Assembly (NCBI GenBank): GCA_019058275.1
Contig: JAHLVW010000045.1
Location: 44,316 to 108,315, forward strand
DNA from: Candidatus Heimdallarchaeota archaeon
GTDB lineage: Archaea; Asgardarchaeota; Heimdallarchaeia; JABLTI01
DNA: 64,000 bases
Direction: 5' to 3'
The notes below the pieces were generated by a model. The model was not told the DNA's origin. It saw nothing but the letters and a program-made list of their open reading frames with translations, and ran no database searches. Made by a program: the position numbers and the translations under genes. Within the stretch, counting starts at the first letter, position 1; every line of letters starts with the position of its first letter. Of this stretch, positions 14,292 to 63,836 are shown piece after piece.

Positions 14292-14344
14292 TGCTTGCCC
14301 ATTTCCAAATTATAACAAGATCCAAACAATTGATGTGATGAAAA

Positions 14345-14602
14345 ATGTCTGAATGCTACATTTGTGGTAGAGAAGGAATAGCTAAATGCTCAGTTTGCCA
14401 TAAATCAATATGCAAAGTACATACAGAAGATGAGAAAGGAAAAATAATCGAAGAAAGTCTGATAAGCAAATTAATTTGCACTAGCTGTTTGAAAAAAAAG
14501 CGGTTAAATAGAATTCAAATCTATCTCTTTGTATGCTTTATTGTAATAGTTGTGGGAATAACTATAGGAATAATAGTAGTAGGTCGACAATTGTGGTGGT
14601 AA
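14345..14602 (+). CDS. Small Zn-finger protein with C-terminal TM helix
   Basis: CxxC-x6-CxxC-x4-CxxH...CxxC followed by a hydrophobic tail. Confidence 0.7.
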   Translation: MSECYICGREGIAKCSVCHKSICKVHTEDEKGKIIEESLISKLICTSCLKKKRLNRIQIYLFVCFIVIVVGITIGIIVVGRQLWW

Positions 14603-14618
14603 GGAAGAGGAATTTTTT

Positions 14619-15110: not shown

Positions 15111-15151
15111 GAATTTTAACCTCTTCTAGATTAGAAAACCTGATAATTATT

Positions 15152-16477: not shown

Positions 16478-16508
16478 TATATGAAAGAATAAAAAAAAGA
16501 AATCTGAA

Positions 16509-17123: not shown

Positions 17124-17130
17124 AGCACCT

Positions 17131-19053: not shown

Positions 19054-19172
19054 AACATCAATTTCCTTCTTTTCACTAAATAATAGTAATATTTCTTTAA
19101 TCAATAGAATTTAGAAGAGCTCTTAATGTTTTCCGTTTAAAAAAACAAAGCAGATTATTTTAAAGGTAATTT

Positions 19173-20273: not shown

Positions 20274-20324
20274 CCTAAGAAATTATGGGGATAAGTATTG
20301 TTAGGTAATGAGAATAAAGTTATG

Positions 20325-20645
20325 TTATCGTAAAAACATTACATGCCCAACTTTACCATGATCTGGGCAATTAATCCACATGACTGCTAATTCATTAACC
20401 ATTCTATTCTCTACAGCAGCATCCACTATTGTTTTACCAATGAGGTTGAAGTTAGTAGCTATCTTCATTTGCTCGAGACATTTTTCTAATGGAACAAGTT
20501 CACCTCCAAAGAAACGATCGTTGATGCAAAGCTCTAGTTCACCTTCACAGATTGTTTTTCCGAGTAAATCTTCGTCACAAACAGTGACCAAATATTCCTT
20601 CTGAGTTTGGCGCACTCGTAGGTAGAACAATTGCTTTTTCGTCAT
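20325..20645 (-). CDS. DUF424 family protein
   Basis: VCDEDLLGK, FFGGE and NLIG motifs; conserved gene position. Confidence 0.88.
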   Translation of the reverse strand: MTKKQLFYLRVRQTQKEYLVTVCDEDLLGKTICEGELELCINDRFFGGELVPLEKCLEQMKIATNFNLIGKTIVDAAVENRMVNELAVMWINCPDHGKVGHVMFLR

Positions 20646-48388: not shown

Positions 48389-48457
48389 ACTCTCAACTAA
48401 CGAAAGATTCAAAAATCCGAAAAGAACAAAAAAGACTACCAAACGAGCGAAATAAAC

Positions 48458-48534
48458 GGCCGGGTAGTCTAGCACGGTATGATACTTGCTTTGGGAGTAA
48501 GTGGTCGCGGATTCAAATTCCGCCCCGGCCACCA
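48458..48534 (+). tRNA. tRNA-Pro(TGG), CCA encoded; integration target
   Basis: GGCCGGG/CCCGGCC acceptor stem, CTTGC-TTTGGGA-GTAAG anticodon arm, GCGGA-TTCAAAT-TCCGC T-arm and an ACCA end. Confidence 0.96.
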
Positions 48535-48609
48535 TTACTTTTGTTTTTTTCTTATTCTTTTGTCATTTTAGTTATTATATCCTTAGTAATTATTTTTCCC
48601 TTCATTCAT

Positions 48610-49230
48610 TCATCTTTTCATTTTTATTGGATCATTTCTCTCTTCATCATCTATTATTATAAACACTCCAACATTTCTTTTGATATATTCCTCTGTCCAT
48701 TCTTTCTTAATCCTCCATCCCCCTGTTGCAAACACACCATTATCCATATCGTAGAATGGTACATGTGTGTGGCTGATGATTAGTTTGTCTGTTGTCAATA
48801 TCATTGGCAAGAAGTCAGAGCCTTTGTTTACTAATCGATTTTTTAGTGCATTTGCTGCTTGCCCCCATGTTTCATCTGCTCTTTTCACTAAACCGATATT
48901 ATGTCCATGACAAACAATAATTCGCCCTTCCTTTGTGTTTAATATTGCCCATGGTAATACTTGAATGGTTGGGCAATCGAATAATATATTTCCTTCATGC
49001 CCCATCCCACCTGTTATGAAAATTATTTTTTCTTTCCATTTTTTATTGTCTATCCATTTTAAGAATCTCTTTAGCGCATTTTTTCCTTTTTCATCATAAG
49101 CATCTATAAAGTCGCCATTTAATATTATGAGATCTACTTTACTTGCAACACTTTCTATTGCTTCTTTAAACTCCTCCTCTAAGCAACCATCTGCTCCTAA
49201 ATGCGTATCACTAAATATCCCTGTCATCAT
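48610..49230 (-). CDS. Calcineurin-like metallophosphoesterase
   Basis: SDTHLG, NGDFID, GGMGHE (GNH variant), HGH and SHTH motifs. Confidence 0.85.
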   Translation of the reverse strand: MMTGIFSDTHLGADGCLEEEFKEAIESVASKVDLIILNGDFIDAYDEKGKNALKRFLKWIDNKKWKEKIIFITGGMGHEGNILFDCPTIQVLPWAILNTKEGRIIVCHGHNIGLVKRADETWGQAANALKNRLVNKGSDFLPMILTTDKLIISHTHVPFYDMDNGVFATGGWRIKKEWTEEYIKRNVGVFIIIDDEERNDPIKMKR

Positions 49231-51568
49231 CTTTCCTTATCATCTCCTCAAGCATTTTTCTTGTGCTGTCTTTTACTTTTTCTGAAGTATTACTCGTTAT
49301 TTGACTTATTTCCTCATCTGCACTCTCTTGCAATAAGTCATGCATTGCTCTTAACACTCGCTTTATTCTTGTAAAAACCGCTTCAGCATTTCCTAACTCC
49401 CCTCCTCGATCATAAAGGGCAATCTTGTTTTCATAATAATTTGTGTATGTACGAAATGATGACTCTGAGATATGAAGCTCTAATTCAATGCTTTTCATCA
49501 GCAATTCCTTTAACAATCTTATTGCTTGTTTCTTTTGTTCTTTTGAAAGAGCGTTTGTAAGACTTGCTACCTCAATAAGCATTCCACTTGTTTTTTCATC
49601 CCAAATGTGATTTTGTAGTTCATTTTCTCTTTTTTCCCTATTAATTACTAATGGCGTTTCATTTTGAGTTGGACTCGTTGATTGGCTCTCAAGTAACTTC
49701 CCATCTTTTGAGTATCTCATTATTTCACTTGTTTCCCAACGAATGATCATCTCACCAAATCGTATTGTTAGCTTCTCAAGTTCCTGCACTCTTGATTGCC
49801 CGTCAATGATAAAAAGAGGTGGTTTCATCCTGTTTCGTTCAACTGCTGTTTTGTTTATGTTAAGTTTATCAACAATTACTTTTTCGTTAGCTAACCTTTT
49901 TACTCTGTAAACTTTACCTTTACTTCCTAGATGTAATAGGTTCCCTGGTAGGGCTGAAAAGATTATGCGGCGCTCATCTATCGAAGCAATTTTCTCACTC
50001 TGATTTTCGTTAGTATTGTCTATTATCTCCCATCGTGGTTCTATCGAGCGGATTCGATGTTTCCTGATAAAAGCATTGACCCCATTTCTATTGGCAATAA
50101 TCAAAGTCCTTTCAATAAAGGGCAAGTGATTGTTTTCAGTTGAAAGTAAACCTTTTGCAAACAATAATGCTATAGCTGTTCGTGTAATACTAGAATCTAA
50201 TTCCTCTTTGCAAAAAGATAAAATATCATCAATCTTAGTTATGCCCAAAACCACCCTCAAGAGTACGAATGCTTGTGTTCTTTGCAGAGCTTTTGAGTCA
50301 AAGAGTATTCGTTCTGTTTTATTTTCTGTTAGAATCTCTTCTATTTTTTTGGGGTGATTCAAATAACAATTATCAATTGCTTTTTCATTATTGAATACTA
50401 ATGAAAAATTCTTTTTCTTAGAAATATCTGAAAACCTTAATCTTCCCAATCGTTGTAATAGACCATTTACTCCTGTAATTGGCCATGAAATATTTACTAT
50501 ATGAACGATATTTGGTATATCCATACCCAGCTCTAGTAATGATGTCGTAAAAACAAACCTTATTGTGCCATTATAAATTCCCTTCAGAATGTCTGTTTTT
50601 TCTTGACCAGTTAATTGACTATTAATACAAGCAAATGGCGAATGCCTTTGTAGGATTTCATCAGGTATGTTTGTTTTTTTCTTAAATAGCTCATTACATT
50701 TTGCTACCAACTCACCTACCTTTTGGATATCATCAACAAAGATCACGCAAGCCCCTTTTACTCTTCGCAAGTAAGGGTCTAACTTCTCTAATAGCAAATC
50801 TTCAATTGATTCTGGTTGAAGAATCATTACTCGAATAGTTCCTCTTGTTGCATTTCCGGTTATTATTTGAGCAGTTGGAAGGAATTTATCACGAAAGGTT
50901 TCTACTTCTTTTACTGTTGCAGAAGCTAGAACTACTCTTACTCTTGAATTTATCTTTTTCAAGATCGCAATCATTTCTCTAATATGTGCTAGGTACCCTC
51001 CTGAACCTGCATGTATCTCATCAACAACAAAGACCCCAACATTAAGGAGCCAACTAAGAAAATCCTCATTGCCTTCTTTAAAAAAGCGATAGAACAATTT
51101 GTCTATGGTTGCTAGGAGGATTTTAGGTTTCTTCTTCTCTATTACTTCAATTTCTTTTCGAGTTAAATCTCCATTATATCTGCTATATGTTATCTTTTTT
51201 CCAGTTACTTCAAAGATCTTATTGCAATATTTTGCAATACGTTGTTCTTGATCCTCAGCAAGCTGTTTTGTTGGGTAGATTATAACAGCACAGTCTATTC
51301 TATTATTAGCAATGTCCTCAAAAATTGGAAATAAAAATGATTCAGATTTTCCTGAACCTGTTCCAACTGCGAGAAAACAATCATTTCTTTTGAGAATTGT
51401 GCTAATCGCTTCTAATTGATATTTATAGAGTTTATATGGCAATAATTCTTGGACACTTTTACCAATTATTTTCAAACCAACATCATCATCACCTACATAA
51501 TAATCAGACACCTCACAATTTGATGGTGGTAGATCAAACACTGATTTCACAGGAATTCCTTTTGACAT
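49211..51568 (-). CDS. SF2 DEAH helicase, Hrq1/SftH (DUF1998)-like (start at 51568 after a GGAGG SD)
   Basis: Q-motif LYKYQ, GTGSGKS, IYPTKQLAEDQ, DEIH, SAT, TSLLELGMDI and QRLGR; C-terminal LYDRGGELG without the usual Cys cluster. Confidence 0.88.
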   Translation of the reverse strand: MSKGIPVKSVFDLPPSNCEVSDYYVGDDDVGLKIIGKSVQELLPYKLYKYQLEAISTILKRNDCFLAVGTGSGKSESFLFPIFEDIANNRIDCAVIIYPTKQLAEDQEQRIAKYCNKIFEVTGKKITYSRYNGDLTRKEIEVIEKKKPKILLATIDKLFYRFFKEGNEDFLSWLLNVGVFVVDEIHAGSGGYLAHIREMIAILKKINSRVRVVLASATVKEVETFRDKFLPTAQIITGNATRGTIRVMILQPESIEDLLLEKLDPYLRRVKGACVIFVDDIQKVGELVAKCNELFKKKTNIPDEILQRHSPFACINSQLTGQEKTDILKGIYNGTIRFVFTTSLLELGMDIPNIVHIVNISWPITGVNGLLQRLGRLRFSDISKKKNFSLVFNNEKAIDNCYLNHPKKIEEILTENKTERILFDSKALQRTQAFVLLRVVLGITKIDDILSFCKEELDSSITRTAIALLFAKGLLSTENNHLPFIERTLIIANRNGVNAFIRKHRIRSIEPRWEIIDNTNENQSEKIASIDERRIIFSALPGNLLHLGSKGKVYRVKRLANEKVIVDKLNINKTAVERNRMKPPLFIIDGQSRVQELEKLTIRFGEMIIRWETSEIMRYSKDGKLLESQSTSPTQNETPLVINREKRENELQNHIWDEKTSGMLIEVASLTNALSKEQKKQAIRLLKELLMKSIELELHISESSFRTYTNYYENKIALYDRGGELGNAEAVFTRIKRVLRAMHDLLQESADEEISQITSNTSEKVKDSTRKMLEEMIRKDDDRDI

Positions 51569-51570
51569 CT

Positions 51571-52122
51571 TTATCCCTCCACCAATCTTGCGCTGATAAT
51601 GAACTCCCAAATTAACTCAACTTTATTTTTCAGAAATTTTTTGAATCCATCATCGAAACCTTCCGGTGAGTATGCTTCAACTATTTCATCAACAGCTAAA
51701 TCAATCATATCAATTTGATTATCTTCTTCTATAAATTCCACTTGACTAAGCATTTCTTTGATTCCCTGTTGAAGGAGTTCTTCCTGCTTCCTCATAGCAA
51801 AATTTCTTTCTTGCCTTTCTGCTATTTCATCAAGTCTTTGATATTCAATTAACATTTCAGGTGGTAACTCTTTTCCAGTGGTCAAGCATAGATATAGCTT
51901 ATTTAATTGAACCAATTTATCTTCCTTGAGCCAATATCTGTAAAGATTTCTACTTCCAACACGCTTGATCAAGCCATCTTGTTGTAATACCTCGAGAGTA
52001 AGATAGGTCTCACTGAGTGGTAAATTTACTTCAATAGAAATCTCTTTGGCACTCTTAGGATAATTGATACCATGTTTATTGTATTCCTCAAGCAAAAAGA
52101 GCATTACTCCAAGTTTATCCAT
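51571..52122 (-). CDS. wHTH DNA-binding protein with a helical C-terminus
   Basis: SAKEISIEVNLPLSETYLTLEVLQQDGLIKR...YRYWL; overlaps the Cas1-like gene stop. Confidence 0.7.
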   Translation of the reverse strand: MDKLGVMLFLLEEYNKHGINYPKSAKEISIEVNLPLSETYLTLEVLQQDGLIKRVGSRNLYRYWLKEDKLVQLNKLYLCLTTGKELPPEMLIEYQRLDEIAERQERNFAMRKQEELLQQGIKEMLSQVEFIEEDNQIDMIDLAVDEIVEAYSPEGFDDGFKKFLKNKVELIWEFIISARLVEG

Positions 52123-53600
52123 GATACAGGCAACTCCAACATTGTTTCACGAAATTCATTAGTAATTGGTGATAATTGGCCAATTGTTCTACCATGCTTT
52201 TGATGATGTTTTTCTTCTCTATCAGGAAAGAGGAAAGCTAACTTTTCAAAATTAGTAATTTCATGATTCACTCTTTGTTCTATGTTTTTTGATCTCATCC
52301 AAACTAATGGTTGAAAATCTAATTTTTGTGTCTCCTCTTGGCAGATTTGGAAAATATTATCATTCAAATTCTCCCTAATCCCAGTTGGCAAACATTCCCA
52401 CTCTAATACTAATCGCCACAATTTAACTGCTAAATTATCCCCGAAAATTGAGTTTTTTATGGATAGGTGCTCCTCCTCTAACCTATTGCCTACATTTGTC
52501 AAGAGAAGATCAAATCTGTCGATTTCTTCCCTACAAGCATCTCTAAAAGAAGAATACTGTTTTCCTCGATAATAACAAGGGTTTTCGAAGAGTTCTTCCT
52601 TCTTTTCAAAAAGGATTTCGTATCCGTATCGTGTTACAGCGTAAGTTCTCCCCCCTTTGAACGCTGTTAACCGCTTAATTTCATCATGAGTAATTTCTTC
52701 AGCTAAGATGGCATCAACTAGCATGTAGTGACCTGCTTTCTTCAGTGAATCACCAAAATCTAATGGTAACCCCATCCAAGAGAGATCAGAATAATAACTA
52801 AAGTGAGAGAAACCACCAACACCTAAATAGTTAATGCCTTTCTCTTCCAGAAGAGTCCATATTTCTTCTTCACAGAATTGATATTCTGTATTAAACAATA
52901 CATCAGTAGGTGTTTGAGCCATACTGTTGAAGTTTCCAATCATGCGCTTGTGTCTGTAGAGACGGTCAGAAACTCTATGGCTTATTCCAAAATCATGTGG
53001 AGCTATTAGTTCATTCGTGAACTTCCAGAGAACCTCAGCAGCAAAACCTTCTGCAGAATTGCATAACTTGTTTGTATGACTATGATAACCAAAGAGATAA
53101 GCGTCACCGATTTTATCAATATGTTTCTTTAATGCTCTCTGATCAGGTAACATTTCTTGCAAAGTAAAAATAAGACTAAGATCACTCTTCATAGCTGTTT
53201 TCATGTAAAGATTATTGAAACCATTTCCTAATCTTATGGCATCAACATAGCCTGCTCTCTTTGGTTCAATTCGTTCAACATTAAACCAACCGCAGAGGTT
53301 TGTTTTCCGCTCGTAATAGCAACCATGATCAAGTAATCGTTGCTTAATCTCATCATCTATACCAGCATAATCAAAGATGTACTTGATATCTTGTAGCTTA
53401 TATCTTACATCTCCAATATACAAATCATCATTGATTATTCGCACATCATATCCTTGATAAATTGGAATTCCTAGTTTTGTTTTTACTTGCTTAATTTCAT
53501 CTGCTTCCAAACCAGTTAATTTGTATATTTGATCATATAGTATATTGTTGCTATCTTTCACACATCGTATATACTGTTTTGTTTTATTTCTATTAGTCAT
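52104..53600 (-). CDS. cas1: Highly divergent Cas1/casposase-like integrase (498 aa from the ATG at 53600)
   Basis: Cas1 motifs in the correct order: beta-rich N-domain (YQGYDVRIINDDLYI...IKYIF...IDDEIKQRLLDHG), AEGFAAEVLW (E184), FGISHR, TPTDVLFNTEY, GINYLGVGGFSH (H266), LPLDFGDSLK (D281/D284) and YRGKQYSSFRDAC. Recognised by eye only. Confidence 0.75.
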   Translation of the reverse strand: MTNRNKTKQYIRCVKDSNNILYDQIYKLTGLEADEIKQVKTKLGIPIYQGYDVRIINDDLYIGDVRYKLQDIKYIFDYAGIDDEIKQRLLDHGCYYERKTNLCGWFNVERIEPKRAGYVDAIRLGNGFNNLYMKTAMKSDLSLIFTLQEMLPDQRALKKHIDKIGDAYLFGYHSHTNKLCNSAEGFAAEVLWKFTNELIAPHDFGISHRVSDRLYRHKRMIGNFNSMAQTPTDVLFNTEYQFCEEEIWTLLEEKGINYLGVGGFSHFSYYSDLSWMGLPLDFGDSLKKAGHYMLVDAILAEEITHDEIKRLTAFKGGRTYAVTRYGYEILFEKKEELFENPCYYRGKQYSSFRDACREEIDRFDLLLTNVGNRLEEEHLSIKNSIFGDNLAVKLWRLVLEWECLPTGIRENLNDNIFQICQEETQKLDFQPLVWMRSKNIEQRVNHEITNFEKLAFLFPDREEKHHQKHGRTIGQLSPITNEFRETMLELPVSWINLE

Positions 53601-53622
53601 TTTTATCTCTCTTTTTTTCCAA

Positions 53623-55698
53623 TCAATTTCTTTCTTGAATGAGCTTAAATGATGAACCGCACCTTGGACACCTTGTTGGTGTTGAACCTTGTTGCGGAAA
53701 GGGTGCTGTACCAAATGCTTCTAAGGGGATCATTTCACCTCGCTCATCATAACAGAATCGGCAAAAATGGGTATATTCTTCCTCGCCCTCTTCTGTTTGT
53801 CCATCAAATCTCTTTGGATTTGATCTATAGAATTCATCAATGGAAAATTGCATTTCTATTGTTTCCTCTTCTAGGAATGCTTCGCACGCAATAGTATCTT
53901 TTCTGAGCATCGAGGTTGTAATATAATCCATTTTTTCTTTTGGTACTTTTCGTTCTGCTGTTTCTCTTACATCCCGCCAAAAATTACAATGATTTTTTTC
54001 ATAATAATAGCAGTCTCCACATTTCTTATAGAAATACTCAGGAATCTCTTTTGTTGAATAATATGTTATTCTTTTCCCTTTTGGTGGTTTACCTGTAACA
54101 GTTTTTAGTGATAATAAATCGTTTTTCTCAAGACTAACTAATGCTCGTTCAACATCTGAACTTAATAATGAAAGGTTTAAAGCAATCAGAGTAAGTGTCA
54201 TTGGAATTGTTGCATATTCTAGCTCTTCTTTGACAGCTTGTTCGATTGCTAACCGGTCTTTCTTTCCTATTAAAGGTACATCCATTAAGTCAAGGTTTTG
54301 TCCTATTGCTTTGCTGATAAGGCCAAAATTCTTTTTTGCTTCGGGTGTCATGTGCTCTTGAAGACTTGCCAATAATATTGATACTTTGAAAATAGTAAAG
54401 CTATCTTGTGTTCTTGAAAGAATTTTAGCAATAACCTCATCTTCATCATTACCTTTAGTTTTCAACCTTCCAAGTACCATTTGTAAATCATCATAAGCTA
54501 ATTTTCCATCAGTAAAATTATGGAAGATTTCCGAGATACAATTCCAATCCAAAGTATCATTTTGTGTTCTATTTTTAATATTCAATAAAACGCCCATGGG
54601 ATCTTCTCGTATTTCTTTGAAATATGTTGAAGCTATAAGGAACTTCTTGCCAAATGGCGTAAGAGTGTATATCCCTGAATTTTCTCTTACTTTAGAAATT
54701 AACGCAAAGTCACCTAGTGATTTTTGATATTTATCAAATAGACCTTCAGAGAAATTCCTTGGTTTAAACAATATTTCAATTAACATTTTTTGAAGAAAAT
54801 CATGACTAGCTTCTAATTTGGATATATTTTGGAGTAATCGACAAATGAGTGAGTTTTGAATTCGTTGAATCATTTTGCTTTTTGATGGTTGTCCAGAATA
54901 GAGTCTTAACAACATTAAATATGGGAGAACAGATTGAAATTCTTCTTTAAGGACCTCTGGATTCAAATCTGAATTAAAGTAAAATTCGTGATCTCCTGAA
55001 ATTTTAACCGCTGTTGTTACTATTAACATGTTCTTTTGTTCATCTAAAGGAACTAAACCTGGAGAGATGTAATGCATTCTGATGTTTTGGTTATTCGCTT
55101 TTCTCTTGAAAAACAAAATGCCATCTATATCAAAAGTAGTGAAGCTTTTTCTGGTTCTTCTTAGCGAGTCATTTTCTCTTAAAGGATCAACAAAAATATA
55201 TGCGTTTGTATGTGGGAGATTAATTCTGTTCTTTAATTTAACATCAGAACTTTTCCGATAAAGTAAGTTTCGAAGCAGACAATCATAGCTTGTAATTATC
55301 ACACAATCATTTGCTGATGGGTAGCTGTTCCCTTTGAATTTTGAAAAAGTGGACGCAACTCGAATGGCATATTTATTTGATAAGGGATAAAAACCTTCAT
55401 TGGATAAATTCTCAGTGGAAAAATTAGTTTCTTGATGAAGATTGAGCATAGTGAATATCTTTCTTGCTTCATCAGCTGTTCGCACAACGATTATAGAAGA
55501 TGAGTTGGCGAATCGCGAATTTAGAAGAGCTGAAGTAACAGCAATTTGTAATTGTTCATCAAGATCTGGTGTCACAAATAGCATATCTTCATCACAGCTT
55601 ACTGCTTTCCGAATAGTAGCATTATCAACACCTCTTGGGAAGGGATAATCTCGAAGAACTGTAGTAATGGCTTTTGGTAAAGCATTCACAAATCTCAT
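53623..55698 (-). CDS. Inactivated Hel308/Ski2-like helicase domain fused to wHTH and C-terminal Cys clusters (start at 55698)
   Basis: Degenerate Walker A 'MLFVTPDLDEQL', Ia 'VRTADEA', Ib 'IITSYDCL', Walker B 'IFVDPL' and III 'ISPG'; a late wHTH; CGDC..C, CRFC and CPRC. Confidence 0.6.
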   Translation of the reverse strand: MRFVNALPKAITTVLRDYPFPRGVDNATIRKAVSCDEDMLFVTPDLDEQLQIAVTSALLNSRFANSSSIIVVRTADEARKIFTMLNLHQETNFSTENLSNEGFYPLSNKYAIRVASTFSKFKGNSYPSANDCVIITSYDCLLRNLLYRKSSDVKLKNRINLPHTNAYIFVDPLRENDSLRRTRKSFTTFDIDGILFFKRKANNQNIRMHYISPGLVPLDEQKNMLIVTTAVKISGDHEFYFNSDLNPEVLKEEFQSVLPYLMLLRLYSGQPSKSKMIQRIQNSLICRLLQNISKLEASHDFLQKMLIEILFKPRNFSEGLFDKYQKSLGDFALISKVRENSGIYTLTPFGKKFLIASTYFKEIREDPMGVLLNIKNRTQNDTLDWNCISEIFHNFTDGKLAYDDLQMVLGRLKTKGNDEDEVIAKILSRTQDSFTIFKVSILLASLQEHMTPEAKKNFGLISKAIGQNLDLMDVPLIGKKDRLAIEQAVKEELEYATIPMTLTLIALNLSLLSSDVERALVSLEKNDLLSLKTVTGKPPKGKRITYYSTKEIPEYFYKKCGDCYYYEKNHCNFWRDVRETAERKVPKEKMDYITTSMLRKDTIACEAFLEEETIEMQFSIDEFYRSNPKRFDGQTEEGEEEYTHFCRFCYDERGEMIPLEAFGTAPFPQQGSTPTRCPRCGSSFKLIQERN

Positions 55699-55699
55699 A

Positions 55700-56302
55700 T
55701 TAATCTCCCTTTTCTTTTTGTGTTGAATAGTTACCAATTGCTGTGCTCCCACAATATTCCTTGATAATTGCTCTTAAATTTTCTTTTAATTCATCTTGTG
55801 ACAAATGACTATTTTCTACTAAACTGTTCAAAAGTGTCTCAATAAGTTCTGATAAGTACCCCTTGTCTGTTTCTAATTGATTTAGAATATATGCTAACTC
55901 CTCTCTGTTCTTTTGTAATTGCTTAATTCCTCTCATAGAAGGTTTCATCTGTTTTATTGTAATAGCAATTTGGAGATCAGGATAGTAAATATTTAGAATA
56001 AAACGGAATAATGGATTATTGATATTAACTTGATAAGCTTGTGTTTTTGAACGCTGAAGTTTGGTTAAAATATTGTTTTTCACTAGAAAGCTAACTAAAT
56101 TATCTATTGTCCTTGAAGATAAGGATAGTTTTTCATCTATTTTGAATGCTTTTAATGAAGGATAATAATATACACCCTGATTTAATGCCTTATCAATCAA
56201 ATATTTGCAGAAGATAGCTACTGAGTTTGTTACTTTTATTTTTGAACTGAATAATCCCTCATGAAAATATTGCTCTTGTACAACTGATATTTCAGAAGGC
56301 AT
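55700..56302 (-). CDS. wHTH protein (replication-initiator/HTH_36-like) with a coiled coil; first gene of the Cas1 operon
   Basis: YPSLKAF...LSLSSRTIDNLVSFLVKNNIL...YQVN; its stop is 1 nt before the next ATG. Confidence 0.6.
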   Translation of the reverse strand: MPSEISVVQEQYFHEGLFSSKIKVTNSVAIFCKYLIDKALNQGVYYYPSLKAFKIDEKLSLSSRTIDNLVSFLVKNNILTKLQRSKTQAYQVNINNPLFRFILNIYYPDLQIAITIKQMKPSMRGIKQLQKNREELAYILNQLETDKGYLSELIETLLNSLVENSHLSQDELKENLRAIIKEYCGSTAIGNYSTQKEKGD

Positions 56303-56341
56303 AATTATCAGTCTAATACTGCTAGATTTTATTTAAAAATC

Positions 56342-56406
56342 AATAAATTCGCTAAAAAACAGAAAGCAAAGCAAAATCAAAAAAATAAATCGCGGAAAAA
56401 CAGAAA
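56342..56406. repeat. Two imperfect ~23-bp direct repeats upstream of the Cas1 operon
   Basis: AATAAATTCGCTAAAAAACAGAAA (56342-56365) and AATAAATCGCGGAAAAACAGAAA (56384-56406), 42 bp apart. Confidence 0.45.
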
Positions 56407-56610
56407 CGGGAATTCATGTTATAGTTAGAAATCGTAATAATCCAGAAAAGCTCAATTTCACATCTGAAAAGAAGCCTTCTCCTACCTTATTTTTCGAAAC
56501 GAGAGATTTCTTTAAGTCCCTTTAAAATTTCTAAAATTGTGTTTTTTTCTTTTTTTTTCAAATTAAAAGTGAAACTCACAAGAAATCATCTTCTAAATTC
56601 CTCTCAGAAG

Positions 56611-56690
56611 CTTGTGTCGGAACGACGACCGTAAAAGGGGCCCCCCACGAAGTGGGGGAAATAGGTCGCACGAGGGGAGCGTTCAGCAAC
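56611..56690. other. GC-rich nested stem-loop (candidate origin/ssDNA signal or ncRNA)
   Basis: CCCCCAC-GAA-GTGGGGG hairpin (56642-56658) nested within CGACC/GGTCG and GAACG/CGTTC stems, in otherwise AT-rich DNA. Confidence 0.55.
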
Positions 56691-56805
56691 AGAGAAAGAT
56701 ATTATTGAAACTAGTTTTTTTTCTTCCGAATTTGTGAATTATTCTTTACAGTCTTTCTCCACTGATAATTTCGGAATTACTCAAAAAAATTCCTTATAGG
56801 TAAAA

Positions 56806-58407
56806 TCAGTTTTTTGTTTGGAAGAATGTTTTAAGGTAAAGTTTTAGAACAGAATTTAGTATCTTATTATTAGTAACTTTTATACCAAAATAGTCGCTTA
56901 TATTTTTGTAAAGGATTTCTTTATTTTCAGATGTAGACAGGATAAGAAGATATCTATTCCGAAGTGATAAATTTCTTACAAGAGAGAGTAATTTTTCATT
57001 AGGTTGTAAGTCTAACCTTGCTTGTGTTTTACGAGAATGAAATAAATCAAGCTTATACTTATGTAAAAAAGGCATCAAATTTATTGGTGTACTAGAAATC
57101 ATTAGTAATAGTTTTTCCAAAAGGGGTATTGGGAGACTATCACTATATTCATATGAAGCTAATTTTCCTTTGGAAATCCCAAGGTATTCAGCTAAGTCTT
57201 GTTGTGTCCAAGAAAAATTATTCCGAACATTTCGTAAGAAAATAGTACATCCTACGACATGAAGAGTAGTAAGAAGGGAAAAGTTGAAGTAGTTTTCACC
57301 TTGTAATGAGAGAATCATTTTTGGATTAAAATCATAGATCAAAAAGTCTGTTGAGTGGTTTACTAGATTATACCTTTGTCGAGTTAGATATTCGTTAAAG
57401 TCTATCTTTTTAATCGGATGCCTTGGATGTAATACATTACTAAGGATGTCTTTTGAAATAGCTTTAATATTAACGGTGTACCCTGTTCCTAAATCTACTT
57501 CTCTTTCAGTTAATGAATATTTAATTTTATTTACATCTAAAACTCTTGCGAATTCATAAGCAAAAAATTTAGAGGAAGAGCTGAAACTAACATTGTCTTT
57601 ATAACTGCCGTCTGCATCTAGTGCTCCAGACCAAAACTCCCAACGAAGATCCTCGTCTGAAACAAAAATAAGTGGTTCTCTTAAAGCATGATACTTTTTA
57701 CCGGTAATAGGTTGATCAGTTAAAAAATTGACTAATCGCACAAGCCACTTATTATTTAGATGAAGTAACCAGACTTTTTTCTCACCGGTAACAGGCCCTT
57801 CAAATCCAAAAAGAGTTTTAGCTAGTGTTTGCATCATTTCCATGTGTTCTTTTGAAAAATCAACTATCACCACATTATGATAATTTAGATGCCCATCACC
57901 AATAACTGAGCCAAGAAAATAAGCTAAATCTCTACTTATTCTTGTAGGCATGTGAAAGTGTTCTCCCCGAGCAGATTGGAATGGAACATAATCTTGTGTT
58001 AGGAATTCTTGCCAGTGATCACTTAACCTGAATAGTGGAAAAGGTAAGCGTTTCTGATTCTCAGTGTAATCAATGATCTTTTGCTGCCACTTCTTAATGG
58101 AATAATCAATAGCTGTATCTTGAAAATAATGATGACTTCTCTCAGCTAATGTTAATGATCGCTTACGTAATTTGCTCGCTAAATCTACTGTTAAAGAAAT
58201 GTATGGTAATCTTTGAATCAGCCGTTCTCCTGCAAGAAAGTCGTGCTTGCGGATCATTATAGAGTAAAGGTTAAGTTTTCCTTGTTCTAGAAATATTTTC
58301 TCTTGCTTTTTTTGTTCTATTAACTTGTTCGCTGTTAACCATTCATTCTTTGGTGTTGGTTCCGTGTCTATCAGTAATGGATCATTTCGCCAGTTAAGCG
58401 TCATCAA
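56806..58407 (-). CDS. Stand-alone double-motif LAGLIDADG endonuclease fused to an XRE-type HTH
   Basis: LAYFLGSVIGDGHL and FWSGALDADGSY motifs; WTQQDLAEYLGISKGKLASYE. Confidence 0.8.
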   Translation of the reverse strand: MMTLNWRNDPLLIDTEPTPKNEWLTANKLIEQKKQEKIFLEQGKLNLYSIMIRKHDFLAGERLIQRLPYISLTVDLASKLRKRSLTLAERSHHYFQDTAIDYSIKKWQQKIIDYTENQKRLPFPLFRLSDHWQEFLTQDYVPFQSARGEHFHMPTRISRDLAYFLGSVIGDGHLNYHNVVIVDFSKEHMEMMQTLAKTLFGFEGPVTGEKKVWLLHLNNKWLVRLVNFLTDQPITGKKYHALREPLIFVSDEDLRWEFWSGALDADGSYKDNVSFSSSSKFFAYEFARVLDVNKIKYSLTEREVDLGTGYTVNIKAISKDILSNVLHPRHPIKKIDFNEYLTRQRYNLVNHSTDFLIYDFNPKMILSLQGENYFNFSLLTTLHVVGCTIFLRNVRNNFSWTQQDLAEYLGISKGKLASYEYSDSLPIPLLEKLLLMISSTPINLMPFLHKYKLDLFHSRKTQARLDLQPNEKLLSLVRNLSLRNRYLLILSTSENKEILYKNISDYFGIKVTNNKILNSVLKLYLKTFFQTKN

Positions 58408-58452
58408 GAATCATTCTCCAATAGCTTTGGTACGATCATACAATAAAAAGTC

Positions 58453-58662
58453 CTATTCTTCTACATACCATATCTGTGTTGGATTCTTGGTTACTCGAAC
58501 CTTTTTCTTTGACTGAATTAAAGCTATCATCTCAATATATTCATTTACAGTTCGCCAATTTAATCCTGTTTTTTTAGCGATCTTTCCCACACTTTGTGGT
58601 TCATCTGTTACCGTAGCCAATATCTGCTTGAAAATTTCCTCAGATTTCCTTCTAGAATCCAT
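58453..58662 (-). CDS. Small wHTH regulator
   Basis: PQSVGKIAKKTGLNWRTVNEYIEMI. Confidence 0.75.
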   Translation of the reverse strand: MDSRRKSEEIFKQILATVTDEPQSVGKIAKKTGLNWRTVNEYIEMIALIQSKKKVRVTKNPTQIWYVEE

Positions 58663-58712
58663 ACTGAAACCCTCGCTATTGTATTCTTATTAAATATTGC
58701 ATACTTATTTTA

Positions 58713-58731
58713 TATAAACGCTAGCTTTATA
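58713..58731. promoter_or_regulatory. Near-palindrome containing back-to-back TATA-like boxes in the divergent promoter
   Basis: TATAAA-C-GCTAGC-TTTATA lies between the divergent starts at 58662 and 58779. Confidence 0.4.
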
Positions 58732-58778
58732 AATATACGAAAGTATATTATTATACAATATCATTGTAAAATAACACG

Positions 58779-60947
58779 GTGACACTCATGTCTAACAAAC
58801 GATCAAAAAACAAGCAAGTGGTTTATTCAAGTAATAAACCGGGGAGAGGAGTGAAATTCTCTGTTTATACTAACGGAGAAATTGTAATAGAAGGAGTAGG
58901 CTCTCAATATGGGTTAAACATTCCTGCTCAGTTAAAACAATGGTTAAATCTTCCAGAAAGAAATGACTCTTTCAATTGGAAACTGAAAGCTGATCTTGAA
59001 ATTATTTACGAGGATAAAAAGCATTTCTTGAAAGATATTTCAGTAACCATTCTATTTAAATCGAAGAAATGGTTCATTAGTCCAAGTAATGTTCTTATCG
59101 AAGGAAAAAATCTTCGCAGCATACTTTCTGAGAGATCTGAATTGATCTGTTCTTTAATTTTACCTAGAAAATATTGGAGTAAAAAATATCTCCAAAGTAT
59201 AAATATATTCAATTCTTTTAACTACAGCGAAAAATCAAATTTCAAAACAATAGCTATTGGTGGAAAAGCAACAGGATTTTATGAAGTAATTCAAGACAAC
59301 AAAAAACAATTTTTTATTAAATTAGAAACAAGTATGAGTGAATCAGGAGCTATACAGTTTCCAGCAGAATTAGCTCAGGTATTTAAGAATTGGACTAGCA
59401 ACAAAGAATTATTCCTTTGTTTGTTTGAAGATGGACAGAAGCAAATAGTTGAAGCATCATTTGTTAAAGATAAAAGTAGACCTGAACGCATTCGAAAAGT
59501 ATTGAATTTTTCTTATAATGGTGAAAGAAAAAATGTTTCCGTAATTTGTCACTCAAGTAATTTAGAATTATCATCTAAGATGAAGCAAGATGTTGAACTT
59601 AAACAAATATTAGTAAAGTTTGGTTTTCAATTAAAATCACTCAAATCAAACGTTTTTCCATTGGGAAGTCATAAAAACAAAAGATTTGAAGAAAAAGTAA
59701 GATTACTTTTTACTAATGCTTTCAATAAAACTGATGCGATAGTCAGAGATGAGGTGGCTTTATCACCTAATTATTTAAAATCTCTCCCAATTGAAAGCCA
59801 GTATACTTTTGATTTGCTAGTATTTTATAAAAACAAGCAATTACCAACACCATCAAAACTTCTACTTCTAATTGAGATAAAATCATCCTTAGGTAAGAGC
59901 AAAACCAAAGTAATTAATGATAGTATAGCTAACTTGAAACATTATCAAACGCATTTAGGAGAGGAAAATGTTCTACCAATTTTTGTTATGAATGCTGTAT
60001 TCAATAAAAGAAAAAAAGAAATTATTGATATGTATAGTATTAAAAACGGTATTTTGATTCTTGACAATGATAAATTATGTTTATTCCGAGATCAACCTGA
60101 ATTGTTAATTGAAACTATTCTTTCATTTAAACAAAAAATATCTCTACTGCAAAATAATCCTTTAGTTACATATCATCCACAAACTAAAGAAATTGTCAGT
60201 ATAGAGAAGCTAAGAAATGAAGCATTAACATTACTTATCAATAAATCGAAGGGGGAGTTAGTTGACCGAAAAACTTTGAATTCTTATTGCATGTTAATGA
60301 ATATTCGTAAAGCAGATTTCAATCGGTTATACCATTACTATGAGTCAGCTGTTAATGAAAATCATTCGATGACATCTTCATTAACTCCTCCTATTTATAA
60401 AAATAAAAGTACAATTATTTACAAAGCCATACACAATCATTTGTGTGAAAACGGTTCTGTTTCCATGATTCAAAAAATACCACAACAATGCTTTAATCGA
60501 TCAAACTCTGAATTAAGACTGCATTCTCAACAAATCTATGATTTTCTACCAAAAGAAATGCATGTTGTGGGTTTGAAAGAATATAACCATCAAGGTAAAA
60601 CCTATGAAAAAATCATTCAAAAAGAACTAGAATCAAAAAAATATGAAGTAATACCTAACATCTTATTCTATTTTGCATTTCGATTAATTGAAATTGATTT
60701 ATTTGCATTGAGAGAAAAGGAGCTTCTTCTTACCAGCTGCAAAAATATGAGTAGTTTTGTTGACTTCCCACAAACTACAGTGGCGATTAAAAGAGCTGTT
60801 AAATTATTATCTTATAGAAAACAATTATTGAATGCAGATAAAGGTTTAGTATGTGTTAGAGTAAATAAACAATTTAGAGATAAATTCAAAAAGAAATTCA
60901 ATAATAAAGTGTTTGCTAAGGATATTGAAGTAAAGATTACTGATTAG
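58779..60947 (+). CDS. Protein with two PD-(D/E)xK restriction-like nuclease domains
   Basis: Domain 1: FEEKV...FDLLV...IEIKS. Domain 2: GKTYEKII...EIDLFA...TSCK. The N-terminal region has AbrB-like 'G.(N/Q)(I/F)PA(Q/E)L' segments. Confidence 0.65.
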   Translation: MTLMSNKRSKNKQVVYSSNKPGRGVKFSVYTNGEIVIEGVGSQYGLNIPAQLKQWLNLPERNDSFNWKLKADLEIIYEDKKHFLKDISVTILFKSKKWFISPSNVLIEGKNLRSILSERSELICSLILPRKYWSKKYLQSINIFNSFNYSEKSNFKTIAIGGKATGFYEVIQDNKKQFFIKLETSMSESGAIQFPAELAQVFKNWTSNKELFLCLFEDGQKQIVEASFVKDKSRPERIRKVLNFSYNGERKNVSVICHSSNLELSSKMKQDVELKQILVKFGFQLKSLKSNVFPLGSHKNKRFEEKVRLLFTNAFNKTDAIVRDEVALSPNYLKSLPIESQYTFDLLVFYKNKQLPTPSKLLLLIEIKSSLGKSKTKVINDSIANLKHYQTHLGEENVLPIFVMNAVFNKRKKEIIDMYSIKNGILILDNDKLCLFRDQPELLIETILSFKQKISLLQNNPLVTYHPQTKEIVSIEKLRNEALTLLINKSKGELVDRKTLNSYCMLMNIRKADFNRLYHYYESAVNENHSMTSSLTPPIYKNKSTIIYKAIHNHLCENGSVSMIQKIPQQCFNRSNSELRLHSQQIYDFLPKEMHVVGLKEYNHQGKTYEKIIQKELESKKYEVIPNILFYFAFRLIEIDLFALREKELLLTSCKNMSSFVDFPQTTVAIKRAVKLLSYRKQLLNADKGLVCVRVNKQFRDKFKKKFNNKVFAKDIEVKITD

Positions 60948-60959
60948 GACTGCATTAAA

Positions 60960-61646
60960 ATGTTCATTGATAAAATTACTAGTAATTCATTACCTCCTCC
61001 AGGTGTTGGAATGACAATTAGTTTTCTTTCACTTGGAAAAGAAACAGATACAAGTGTTGTAGTTAAGCATATCAAATCGGTTAAAAAAGCAAGTCGAAGA
61101 CTTTATTGTTTATTATATGTCCATGAATACCAAGAATTAACAATTATCCAAAAAAGGGAAATTTTCAAACCTTTTATTGATGAAGAATTTGAATCTTTAA
61201 AGTATCACATGGTACTTTTTTCAGGATTATATCATATTACTGAAAATATATCAAAATTACAAGATCTTGGAATGAATCATCCTAATGAACTTGTCCGTTG
61301 TGCTGCTATTTGGTCTCGAGCAAAATTAGGTGACCATAAGGATTTATTTGAACGAATTAAAGTTGAATCACCTAATGTAGAAGAAGATGAATCAATTTCA
61401 TTACTCGCAGCAAGTTTATACTTAATTAATAATAACAAAAATTCACAAGAAATGCTTTTTTTAAAGGATTATTTTCTTGATAATTTTTATGATGAAGGAA
61501 AAAAACAATTTTATGATCTTATCCTTCACAATGTTGACTTTTCATCAGAACTAATTGCTTATTTATTATGGCAAATAGGTTATAAGTATAAAACAATAGA
61601 TGATTGGCGTAGTTTGGATTTGGATTGGTTAATCCTAAATGGATAG
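60960..61646 (+). CDS. Hypothetical helical protein
   Basis: 228-aa ORF, co-oriented and 12 bp after the nuclease gene. Confidence 0.6.
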   Translation: MFIDKITSNSLPPPGVGMTISFLSLGKETDTSVVVKHIKSVKKASRRLYCLLYVHEYQELTIIQKREIFKPFIDEEFESLKYHMVLFSGLYHITENISKLQDLGMNHPNELVRCAAIWSRAKLGDHKDLFERIKVESPNVEEDESISLLAASLYLINNNKNSQEMLFLKDYFLDNFYDEGKKQFYDLILHNVDFSSELIAYLLWQIGYKYKTIDDWRSLDLDWLILNG

Positions 61647-61800
61647 CTTCTGTTATTTCTTTGTAGCTGATCCAATTAATATTATTTCACAAATTATTAC
61701 TATATTCTGCCCAATTATCCATGTTTCTAAAGTTTCATTTAGAGTTTTATATACAATTTCCCTTATTGTACATTGAGAATCAAATAAAGAAGGTTTAAGA

Positions 61801-62673
61801 TTGCATAACAAAGAAAAAACCTATTCTTCAGATACAGATAAAAGTTGGTCAGAATTCATAGCAGGACAATATAAAGGGGCACTTCTTCTTAGTGATCATT
61901 TTCTTGAGGAACATAAATACTCAGATGTGGAAAAAGTACTTGCTAGCGCGATAAGAATGTGCCCAGAACAAGCACTTGGTTATGCAAAACTTGGTGAATT
62001 TTACTTGGAGTATGGTGGGAAAAAGTCCGATGCATTGTGGTGCTTGAATAAAGCTCAACAATTAGATCCTTTAAATGTTGAAAATCTATTGAATCTTTGT
62101 TCATTTTATGAACTCGTAGGTCGATTTAAGGAAGCAAGAGAAATTGGTGAAAAAATTTTGGAACTAGCTCCTGATAATCACAGGTCGTTAGTTATTCTTG
62201 GATGCCATTATGCAAACGATGGTCAATATAATAAAGCATTGCAGTTTTTAGAAAAAGCAACTAAGATTGATTCATCAAATGAAGCTGCTTGGTTTAACCT
62301 TTCAATTCTTCACCACAAACAAGGAAATATACAAGAAGAGTTGAAATGTTTAGAACATGCTATTGGAATAAATCCTTTTTGTTTTGAATATTGGTGTCAA
62401 TTAGGATTCAGCTACAAATCATTAGGCGAATTTGATGAGTGTTTAGAATGTTTCTGGCGTGCAAACAAGATAGCTATATTTGATCCATCAATTATTTTTG
62501 AAATTGCAGTTGTACATGCAATTAAAAAAGAAAAAGAAACAACGTTGGATATTTTAAAACTTGTTAGGGATGATGATTTTCCACTTCATGATGAAATTTT
62601 GAAAGAAGAAGCCTTTAACTTTCTTAAATCGGACAAAGATTTTCAATTACTACTTGCTAGTTTATCTGCTTAA
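61801..62673 (+). CDS. TPR repeat protein
   Basis: Repeated 34-aa units of the form W/Y..LG..Y...G...A...L.KA..(L/I)(D/N)P. Confidence 0.9.
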   Translation: MHNKEKTYSSDTDKSWSEFIAGQYKGALLLSDHFLEEHKYSDVEKVLASAIRMCPEQALGYAKLGEFYLEYGGKKSDALWCLNKAQQLDPLNVENLLNLCSFYELVGRFKEAREIGEKILELAPDNHRSLVILGCHYANDGQYNKALQFLEKATKIDSSNEAAWFNLSILHHKQGNIQEELKCLEHAIGINPFCFEYWCQLGFSYKSLGEFDECLECFWRANKIAIFDPSIIFEIAVVHAIKKEKETTLDILKLVRDDDFPLHDEILKEEAFNFLKSDKDFQLLLASLSA

Positions 62674-62730
62674 CAAAATCACAAGGAGAATTCTACTATA
62701 AGTAATAATTTTAATTACTAATGATTGATT

Positions 62731-62763
62731 TCGCGGATTCGAATTCCGCCCCAGCTACCATTA
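62731..62763 (+). repeat. Copy 2 of the tRNA-Pro 3' end (att/TSD-like)
   Basis: TCGCGGATTCGAATTCCGCCCCAGCTACCATTA differs from 48505-48537 at 3 positions. Confidence 0.85.
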
Positions 62764-62880
62764 TCTTATTCTTCGTATTTTTGTAATTTTATTTCATCTA
62801 TGGTCTTTTCTCTATTTGGTTAGTTTATTTTTCCTATTTCTTGACCAAGTTTAAAAGCTTAGAAAGTCACTATTTTACTG

Positions 62881-63216
62881 ATGATTATGTCTCTCTCACT
62901 TCACCAACAGGCTCTCACTGCTTTTCTTACAAAGCTTCAAAAAGATTATTCCCCCCTATTAGAGCGAATCATACTTTTTGGTTCTTATAGCAAAGGTGAA
63001 GCCTTACCTGAAAGTGATATTGATGTTTTGATTATAATTACAACTGAAGATTTCCGTTTAAGACGTGCTATTATTTCTTTGAGCGCAGAAATCTTTCTTC
63101 AATATGCAGTTGATATTTCACCTAAAGTACTTTCTTTACATGATTTTGAACTCGCGCAAAAAAGGAATAATCTCTTTATACAACATATTCTTTCAGAAGG
63201 TGAAATCATTGTATGA
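62881..63216 (+). CDS. Minimal nucleotidyltransferase (MNT) antitoxin
   Basis: ILFGSYSKGEA...SDIDVL motif; C-terminal ILSEGEII. Confidence 0.92.
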   Translation: MIMSLSLHQQALTAFLTKLQKDYSPLLERIILFGSYSKGEALPESDIDVLIIITTEDFRLRRAIISLSAEIFLQYAVDISPKVLSLHDFELAQKRNNLFIQHILSEGEIIV

Positions 63217-63579
63217 GGAGCAAATTGCACAAGCTGAAGAGAAGCTCCGAGTTGCAGAGTTTCTTTTAAAAGAAGGATTTTACAACGATGCCGTTAGTCG
63301 AGCTTACTATTGCATTTTCTTTGCAGCATCTGCACTTCTTTCCACAAAAGGCATTTCCATAAAACGCATAAAGGTCTTCTTTCACAGTTTAGTTTAGAAT
63401 TTACTAAAACAGGCCAAATTGATGATTCTTTTATCAAAGCTTTTAAGATTGCTAAGGAGTTACGGGAAGAAGCTGATTATTCTATTGTTAGACAATTGTC
63501 GCGAGAGGAAGCTCTCTCTGTTCTTGCAGATGCTAAAAAGTTTCTTATGAAAACAAAGCAAATTATAAAAGAAATATAA
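63209..63579 (+). pseudogene. HEPN domain protein, frameshifted at the A-run near 63361
   Basis: GGTGA SD and TTG start at 63209. AVSRAYY..F.AASALL is in one frame and KTHKG...REEADY in the next; adding one A restores a single ORF. Confidence 0.8.
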
Positions 63580-63807
63580 ATTACAACAGATAAAGGCTAT
63601 TACGCTAATAAAACATTCTTTTATGGGCAGTCTTGATAGAAGGACGTGGGAGTTCAAAGGGCGTTTTCCCTTAGATCACGAATTCAACTCCCGTTCTCCG
63701 CTTCTTTTGTTTTATTTTTATTATGACAATAATTAAATTAGTTGGTATTTGGTTTGATATTCCTCCAGAAGAGATAGAGGAACTCAAACGATCTGCTCAA
63801 GGTCCTT

Positions 63808-63836
63808 GATTCGAATTCCACCCCGGCCACCATTAC
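63808..63836 (+). repeat. Copy 3 of the tRNA-Pro 3' end, closing a ~1.1 kb MNT-HEPN cassette
   Basis: GATTCGAATTCCACCCCGGCCACCATTAC differs from 48510-48538 at 2 positions. Confidence 0.85.

Follow-up and report, generated by a model that had tools for sequence, protein, structure and literature searches.

How does a 14.2-kb block of DNA come to sit at the end of a tRNA gene when no recombinase can be recognised in it? The question is raised by a stretch of 64,000 nucleotides (nt), here called the window, from the genome of a Candidatus Heimdallarchaeota archaeon (assembly GCA_019058275.1, contig JAHLVW010000045.1, positions 44,316 to 108,315 of the forward strand), in which a tRNA-Pro gene is followed by such a block, carrying a gene for a Cas1-like protein. 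An earlier interpretation made from the letters of this DNA, the sequence-only reading, had proposed a helicase-equipped, casposon-like element without the polymerase PolB. Our analysis upheld the element, the Cas1 fold and the linkage to tRNA; it did not uphold a duplication of ~33 bp, and it left the role of Cas1 as the integrase evenly poised. The block is best explained as an integrated copy of a family of mobile elements of ~14-16 kb specific to one Heimdallarchaeial genus. It may represent a new casposon-like kind of element, with a diverged Cas1 relative as its only integrase-like gene and no DNA polymerase.

Boundaries of the block at tRNA-Pro and an empty site at tRNA-Ala

The tRNA-Pro(UGG) gene (48458..48534, + strand; ARAGORN and Rfam) contains no intron and ends in a repeat (copy 1, 48505..48537, +) made up of the T-arm, the acceptor 3′ strand, CCA and three further nt. 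A second copy at 62731..62763 (+) matches these last 33 nt at the tRNA-Pro 3′ end with 3 mismatches (30/33), and 0/100 shuffles gave such a match. This copy forms the right boundary of the 14.2-kb unit; the proposal that the block lies between the tRNA-Pro 3′ end and a 30/33 copy of it was therefore borne out. The repeats (48505-48537/62731-62763) stand as its limits. The strain-variable DNA, on the other hand, starts not at 48538 but at 48416, 42 nt upstream of the tRNA, and thus includes the promoter region of the tRNA-Pro gene (48416..48457, +), which differs from that of a 99.3%-identical sister genome.

A third repeat copy (28/33) lies at 63803..63835 (+). Because the window ends where contig C33 ends, the sequence beyond 64000 was read from two other contigs of the same genome (G000), C108 and C52. 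The 6.7-kb contig C108 holds four further repeat copies, together with genes for PIN, CBS and membrane proteins and for a TPR paralogue of a window gene. The end of C52 holds two more copies and matches the sequence that follows the tRNA-Pro array in related genomes. Since C108 and C52 continue the locus with more repeat copies, the 14.2-kb block is the opening unit of a longer array, which stretches from tRNA-Pro to the conserved chromosome. No integrase gene was found on either of these continuing contigs, which removes a tyrosine integrase just beyond 64000 as the source of the repeats, a possibility that the sequence-only reading had raised.

The mobility of the element was most clearly seen at a different gene, tRNA-Ala(UGC). 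Aligned with a sister genome, contig C81 of G000 shows 97.9% identity as far as the tRNA-Ala end and 96% identity on the far side of the element. At the site itself the sister genome carries 13.8 kb, where C81 has no insert. The empty site in a related genome that a mobile element should leave was thus observed, at tRNA-Ala. On either side of the 13.8-kb insert lies the same 14-bp sequence, a perfect repeat that corresponds to the last 14 nt of the tRNA. Of ~20 T-arm positions in the distal copy, 7 depart from the target, with compensatory changes in the stem among them; identity is complete in the 14 bp and in the 142-nt flank that follows the distal copy, indicating that the distal T-arm came with the element. 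A ~33-bp target-site duplication was rejected at tRNA-Ala, where just 14 bp are perfectly duplicated. Of the tRNA-linked duplications of ~30 bp previously envisaged, the tRNA linkage was retained and the length was not, the clean tRNA-Ala case duplicating 14 bp alone. Two readings of this 14-bp repeat remain, namely a casposon-like duplication beside a T-arm mimic and an attP × attB crossover within the 14 bp. The repeat length varies among copies (14 bp, perfect, at tRNA-Ala; 33 nt with 3 mismatches in the window; 32 nt, perfect, in the copy L084 of the related genome G006). There is good support for regarding the 14.2-kb block as an integrated element with recent mobility.

Metagenomic matches to the window stretch were obtained from 4 runs of one study, as Logan contigs, which break at repeats. 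Among these contigs neither a joint from 48537 to 62764 nor a circle joint was listed, which, given the breaks, does not speak against excision. Their loose ends at 48534/48536 correspond to other repeat copies (on C52 and C108), and a metagenome contig departs from the window sequence at 48415. One low-depth contig (3.2), found in two runs, joins 61377 to 46811 through 21 other letters, at positions that are off the repeats; it probably derives from a paralogous locus or another strain.

The next cassette, between repeat copies 2 and 3 (62881..63579, +), encodes an MNT nucleotidyltransferase and a HEPN gene split by a frameshift. Variant contigs from two runs carry an extra A after 63360 in the HEPN gene, indicating that the frameshift varies in the population. 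At the tRNA-Pro loci of related genomes and of C52 (L049 = G006:C8; L052 = G001:C231; G000 C52:64243-65738), we observed 2-6 tRNA-end repeats with a spacing of 0.3-2 kb, and the cassette nearest the chromosome is common to three species (92-95% identity). The cassettes in the arrays of related genomes hold toxin-antitoxin and other small genes, without any integrase. The tRNA-Pro site is almost empty in genomes G003 and G010.

The Cas1-like protein and the other genes of the element

The 498-amino-acid (aa) protein encoded at 52104..53600 (−) had been suspected of being Cas1-like, and its predicted structure gave a strong fold match. An AlphaFold2 (AF2) model, built with 17 homologues, all from Heimdallarchaeota, reached a mean pLDDT of 68.5. 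In Foldseek, this model matched A. fulgidus Cas1 (4n06; E 1.3e-6) and the casposase (6opm; E 3.8e-6); the best 50 matches were all Cas1/casposase, with 22 Cas1 at E<=1e-3. An exhaustive structural search (VIA) gave Z 17.1 to 4n06, aligning model residues 44-436 with chain residues 3-345, and Z 16.3 to 6opm. Its top 12 matches were Cas1 throughout, and the next match had a Z of 5. The protein is thus predicted by the model to have the two-domain Cas1 fold, with an N-terminal beta domain and a C-terminal helical catalytic domain.

Profile alignment pointed in the same direction. When the protein was aligned by hhalign with a set of 31 canonical Cas1 proteins from Asgard archaea (E 4.2e-5, 262 columns), E184, N237, H266 and D281/D284 coincided with the Glu, Asn, His and Asp/Glu motifs of Cas1. 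E184, N237, H266 and D281 are invariant in 18 homologues and are kept in paralogues fused to p709, another protein of the element. At the level of alignment, the very diverged Cas1 of the element thus appears to be active. Its identity to solved Cas1 structures is 11-14%, and the 498-aa protein was matched neither by the Cas1 family model (Pfam PF01867) nor by NCBIfam or PADLOC, nor in a sequence search of the PDB. The profile of the Cas1-like family retrieved 24 proteins at E<=1e-3 among 1.84 billion representative proteins, most of them longer fusions. The protein P0034 provides a transitive link, as it matches the family profile (E 1.8e-6) and scores 21.8 bits to Cas_Cas1, just under the Pfam cut-off.

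The Cas1-like gene belongs to a set of six minus-strand open reading frames (ORFs; 48610-56302) in which neighbours overlap or abut, in accordance with the coupled operon described earlier. The first gene (55700..56302, −) encodes a putative winged helix-turn-helix (wHTH) protein of 200 aa, which is conserved and gave weak HTH matches only; the label "Rep-like" attached to it is unsupported. It is followed by p709 (53623..55698, −; 691-709 aa), with a wHTH, C-terminal zinc ribbons and an N-terminal part without an assigned fold. The zinc ribbon of p709 agrees with the sequence-only reading, and the description "inactive Hel308-like" is unsupported, since hhalign found no profile match between p709 and the element's helicase. 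The AF2 model of p709 (8 homologues) was poor, with a pLDDT of 47, only the wHTH and zinc ribbon being visible; the "inactive helicase", drawn from Atlas features, is a weak lead. In distant paralogues (C106, C93, C17), a single protein combines the Cas1-like domain with the C-terminal half of p709. Downstream of the Cas1-like gene lie a 183-aa wHTH protein (51571..52122, −; TrmB HTH 4.5e-4, below cut-off), which is kept in all copies, and a 799-aa superfamily 2 DEAD/DExH helicase of the Lhr/YprA(MrfA)-like type (49211..51610, −; DEAD 4e-29, Helicase_C 2e-12, weak MZB). The best NCBIfam models for this helicase are Lhr-type/YprA-type (TIGR04121/TIGR03817), with scores far below cut-off. A 206-aa metallophosphoesterase (48610..49230, −; Pfam Metallophos E 1e-6) closes the operon at the left end, tail-to-tail with the tRNA. 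Helicase-phosphoesterase pairs number ~10 in G000.

To the right of the operon, a 533-aa LAGLIDADG + XRE-HTH protein (56806..58407, −; LAGLIDADG_3 7e-6, HTH_3 3.5e-4), which has ~25 paralogues in the genome, is followed by a 69-aa wHTH protein (58453..58662, −; HTH_45 / Sso10a-like family matches). On the plus strand, p722 (58779..60947) has two PD-(D/E)xK nuclease-like domains, its conserved partner p228 (60960..61646) has no family match, and a 290-aa TPR protein (61801..62673), the window gene with a paralogue on C108, represents cargo. Among p722 relatives, 7/8 match NERD and 3/8 match Hjc, and two invariant D...(E/S)xK sets agree with the dual-nuclease assignment made earlier; the metallophosphoesterase, helicase, LAGLIDADG-HTH and TPR assignments likewise have Pfam support. 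All genes are intact in the window copy.

Searches with Pfam, NCBIfam, PADLOC and PHROGs found no tyrosine or serine recombinase, DDE transposase, PolB or other polymerase, or Cas2 in the block, and no CRISPR array was detected in 40000-64000. Together with the lack of a clear terminal inverted repeat (TIR), this confirmed the absences noted in the sequence-only reading. No PF00589-type match was found in the block or in complete copies, although p709 or the N-terminal part of p722 could in principle conceal a very diverged recombinase. The element contains no TnpB gene, and for the operon PADLOC gave generic helicase matches but recognised no known defence system. In Rfam, the window gave tRNA only; in the interval that separates the operon from the LAGLIDADG gene (56619-56685), nothing reached the gathering threshold. 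The 21 CRISPR spacers of this assembly had no match anywhere in the element family. A virus was rejected as an explanation on finding no capsid or terminase match in PHROGs, and an SSV-type split integrase was rejected because no ORF reads across either repeat.

Distribution of the element and candidates for the integration step

Four copies of the operon are present in G000, on C33 (window), C52, C84 and C19. Within the class, the element family is confined to one Heimdallarchaeial genus (6/11 genomes of the genus, 0/72 other genomes of the class), with 0-4 copies per genome in the genus. In 8/10 copies with a readable flank, the phosphoesterase gene lies tail-to-tail with a tRNA 3′ end: tRNA-Pro in the window copy, tRNA-Ala(UGC) in L008, L083 and L084, tRNA-Lys(CUU) in C84, L007 and L087, and tRNA-Glu in C19, across a 500-nt gap. 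The recurrence of one gene order at tRNA 3′ ends, proposed as a sign of a mobile element, thus extends to four tRNA species.

This distribution bears on the simplest alternative, in which the operon would be a system fixed in the chromosome and the adjoining tRNA-end repeats would be coincidental relics of other elements. L006, L085 and C19 (with its 500-nt gap) have no directly adjacent intact tRNA, and the intact genes of the window copy fit selection for a host function. A fixed system is contradicted by the differences in presence and absence between 98-99%-identical genomes and by the empty tRNA-Ala site on C81; the 0-4 copies per genome in the genus, with none in the rest of the class, and the 8/10 copies at tRNA ends also argue against it. 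We consider a fixed system very improbable; the patchy copies at tRNA ends contradict the notion, also weighed in the sequence-only reading, of homologous operons as fixed loci unlinked to tRNAs.

Comparison of the copies revealed two conserved core modules. The first consists of the wHTH, p709, Cas1-like, wHTH, Lhr/YprA-like helicase and metallophosphoesterase genes, and the second of the LAGLIDADG-HTH, small wHTH, dual-nuclease p722 and p228 genes. The cargo at the far end varies, from TPR in the window to an MmeI-like restriction-modification enzyme elsewhere. The latter, a 972-aa protein (15398-18316), is found in L084, the G006 copy, which measures 16.3 kb, has a perfect 32-nt repeat at both bounds, is followed by a truncated second copy and contains no integrase. 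Neither of the complete repeat-bounded copies (window; L084) gave a recombinase or transposase match.

An unusual arrangement was observed at tRNA-Lys(CUU). The gene beside the C84 copy (G000 C84:52-165; locus L089) has a 31-nt insertion in the T-loop. At the far end of this element (14134-14337), the tRNA-Lys promoter and 5′ part occur in inverted orientation, cut at ~position 44, and an intron-less tRNA-Lys 3′ part lies 80 nt from the inverted 5′ part. This 3′ part recurs nearly base for base in a sister genome (also L007), on the other side of its tRNA-Lys. The pieces may reflect an inversion between attachment (att) sites or a split tRNA gene.

Repeats that run from the T-arm to the tRNA 3′ end, with a tRNA-like part borne by the element, are the classic att pattern of tyrosine integrases. 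The block could accordingly be a non-autonomous island, mobilised by a tyrosine integrase that acts in trans or has since been lost, or swapped between strains by flanking homologous recombination, with the Cas1-like operon as a riding defence or repair system. The tRNA-Pro locus is a hot spot, with 2-6-copy arrays of integrase-free cassettes in related genomes, the variable DNA of the window starts upstream of the tRNA, six tyrosine recombinases are encoded in the genome, all on contigs other than the element's, and the MmeI-like enzyme and MNT-HEPN represent defence cargo; each of these fits such an island. The same operon end, however, abuts four tRNA species, which would require four helper integrases or a specificity factor within the element. 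Genomes that are 98% identical differ by a precise insertion at tRNA-Ala, neither boundary of three complete copies shows an integrase or a split SSV-type int fragment, and the PADLOC result gives little sign of a defence system. This explanation appears distinctly unlikely.

The Cas1-like protein as the integrase is, in our view, the best single explanation, although we would put equal weight on its being right and on its being wrong. It is favoured because the protein is the only one with an integrase fold, because its motifs are intact in every variant, and because the 14-bp repeat of the tRNA end is as in casposons. The Cas1-like protein would integrate the element, probably with p709, to which the Cas1-like domain is fused in distant paralogues. 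The 3′-OH ends of the element would be joined to the acceptor/CCA end of the tRNA gene, beside the T-arm, and a short stretch would be duplicated in the process (14 bp in the clean case), just as happens with family-2 casposons. The helicase, the phosphoesterase and p722 may prepare or free the DNA ends, in place of Cas4/Cas2 or PolB, and the T-arm-like sequence at the right end might serve as a second binding site of the Cas1-like protein.

Variant elements at tRNA-Pro show which components are constant. Two sister genomes (GCA_019058195.1 and GCA_050009915.1; L097/L098) are 99.3% and 97.8% identical to the window upstream of tRNA-Pro, and both diverge from it 42 nt before the gene. Their tRNA-Pro has a 48-nt intron at position 39, which the window tRNA-Pro lacks; the latter also shows a compensatory change in the anticodon stem. 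The element that both carry at this tRNA-Pro (11451-20354) has LAGLIDADG-HTH, small wHTH and p722/p228-like genes plus a four-gene operon (249, 680, 226 and 260 aa). The 260-aa protein is a PDDEXK_1 (Cas4-like) nuclease, and the 680-aa protein (s680) aligns weakly, motif for motif (E/N/H/D), with Cas1 and the window protein. The Cas1-like gene is therefore constant across variants, as the LAGLIDADG-HTH and p722 genes are. Paralogues of the sister element occur on contigs C16, C29, C78 and C89 of G000. Divergent Cas1-like genes occur at no fewer than 16 loci of this genome, 12 of which have a LAGLIDADG-HTH gene at most 12 kb away, in addition to two canonical Cas1 genes (C26, C76).

The second module offers another candidate for the site-specific step. 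A LAGLIDADG-HTH protein could cut the tRNA site, followed by homology-directed copy-in (homing), or p722, perhaps with p228, could act on attP/attB; the Cas1-like operon would then be exchangeable cargo or a maintenance function, e.g. in defence or repair. In the case of HeimM2 from Heimdallarchaeum, the proposed integration factor is a homing endonuclease (PMC8813620). In the present family, the tRNA-like segment of the element would supply homology on the far side of a break, the genome holds ~25 LAGLIDADG-HTH copies, and the sister genomes combine a similar right-hand module with a different left-hand operon. The p722 type tracks the target tRNA strictly: members are 47-61% identical within the Ala group and 55% within the Lys group, and ~25% identical between groups. 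In its correspondence with the target tRNA, the p722/LAGLIDADG module is no worse than Cas1. Furthermore, L083, situated at tRNA-Ala, has an Ala-type p722 beside an operon like that of the window (76% identical), an argument weakened by the near identity of the tRNA-Pro and tRNA-Ala sites, in which 5/33 positions differ. All the variant left-hand operons examined have kept a Cas1-like gene whose motifs are intact, which would not be expected of random cargo, and the end fixed against the tRNA is the operon end, not the p722 end. The regulator WhiA also has a LAGLIDADG + HTH architecture, so the LAGLIDADG-HTH protein may only regulate. To our knowledge, no PD-(D/E)xK protein is a stand-alone integrase. 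Integration by the second module, the strongest competitor of the Cas1 reading, seems rather unlikely.

Besides the p722 grouping and L083, several observations weigh against Cas1 as the integrase. The T-arm mimic at the distal repeat is element-borne and attP-like, and the distal tRNA-Pro copies in G000 and G006 have common states that are missing from the resident tRNA. No TIR is common to the four copies with known ends; the window copy has one subterminal inverted match (13/14; shuffle p ~0.02). The element has no PolB and no replication gene. The Cas1-like gene of the G006 copy (C110:38335-39822) contains an internal TAA, and p709 is split into pieces in the C52 and L006 copies. At tRNA-Pro, the different element of the sister genomes counts on the same side, as does the difference of the window tRNA and its promoter from those of the 99.3%-identical genome, a difference in keeping with an exchange of the entire island through recombination in the flanks.

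If Cas1 is taken as the integrase, a bolder picture can be drawn, which we offer tentatively and would sooner expect to fail than to hold. It would be a third Cas1-driven system, made up of polymerase-less, TIR-less elements of ~14 kb, in which a Cas2-independent Cas1/p709 integrase would read the T-arm both in the target and in its own end. The products would be CRISPR-like arrays at tRNA ends with gene-sized "spacers", drawing on at least 16 loci per genome in one genus and on swappable helpers (Hel+MPE, Cas4-like nuclease).

Significance and relation to known systems

We know of only two settings in which Cas1 acts as an integrase, CRISPR spacer capture and casposons. If the interpretation favoured here is true, tRNA-targeting, polymerase-less elements with a very diverged Cas1 would widen the known roles of Cas1, would bear on the origin of CRISPR adaptation from mobile elements, and could yield site-specific integrases for kilobase-sized DNA. 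The empty and occupied tRNA-Ala pair gives the exact element ends and the target for an in vitro test. If Cas1 is not the integrase, an as yet unrecognised tRNA-site recombination machinery would be needed, e.g. the LAGLIDADG-HTH protein or the dual nuclease, which would also be new.

Parts of the element resemble several known systems. Helicase-nuclease repair pairs include Lhr-MPE and YprA(MrfA)-MrfB, and as in these pairs, the DExH helicase gene overlaps a small nuclease/phosphoesterase gene. Unlike them, the pair described here sits in a mobile element with Cas1, and its helicase scores far below the cut-offs of the Lhr/YprA models. Like the present family, SSV-type/pNOB8-type elements have direct repeats of tRNA 3′ ends, bring a tRNA-like att segment of their own, form tandem arrays at a single tRNA and show loss of the tRNA intron on the element side; in the present family, by contrast, no complete copy has a tyrosine recombinase or a split int fragment in or beside it.

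Extremely diverged Asgard homologues of Cas1 (aCas1) outside CRISPR loci, some of them predicted to lie in new mobile elements, were reportedly described by Makarova et al. in 2020 in CRISPR J. The present gene is similar in being an extremely diverged Cas1 gene outside a CRISPR locus. Transposons combining aCas1 with TnpB are also reported from Asgard archaea (PMC10691335), and our element differs from them in lacking TnpB. HeimM2 and other mobile elements of Heimdallarchaeum resemble it in the host group, in the position beside tRNA genes and in a homing-endonuclease-like gene, which was proposed as the source of site specificity (PMC8813620). HeimM2 itself is 8 kb long and has a leucine-rich-repeat gene, and its description mentions neither Cas1 nor a helicase or phosphoesterase (Wu et al. 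2022, PMC8813620); the term "Cas1" occurs nowhere in the text of that paper.

A CRISPR adaptation module differs from the present locus, which has no Cas2 and no array beside the Cas1-like gene. A close resemblance is to family-2 casposons (Aciduliprofundum boonei, Methanosarcina mazei), which insert at tRNA 3′ ends next to the T-arm and form tandem arrays (PMC9939771), with target-site duplications of ~14 bp (PMC8464041). Like these, the present family has a Cas1-fold protein outside a CRISPR locus, inserts at tRNA 3′ ends by the T-arm and forms tandem arrays; the 14-bp repeat at the cleanly resolved tRNA-Ala site may be a comparable duplication. In contrast to casposons, its Cas1 is undetectable by Pfam, PolB and reproducible TIRs are missing, and the element instead carries a helicase, a phosphoesterase, p709, a LAGLIDADG-HTH/p722 module and a T-arm mimic at its right end.

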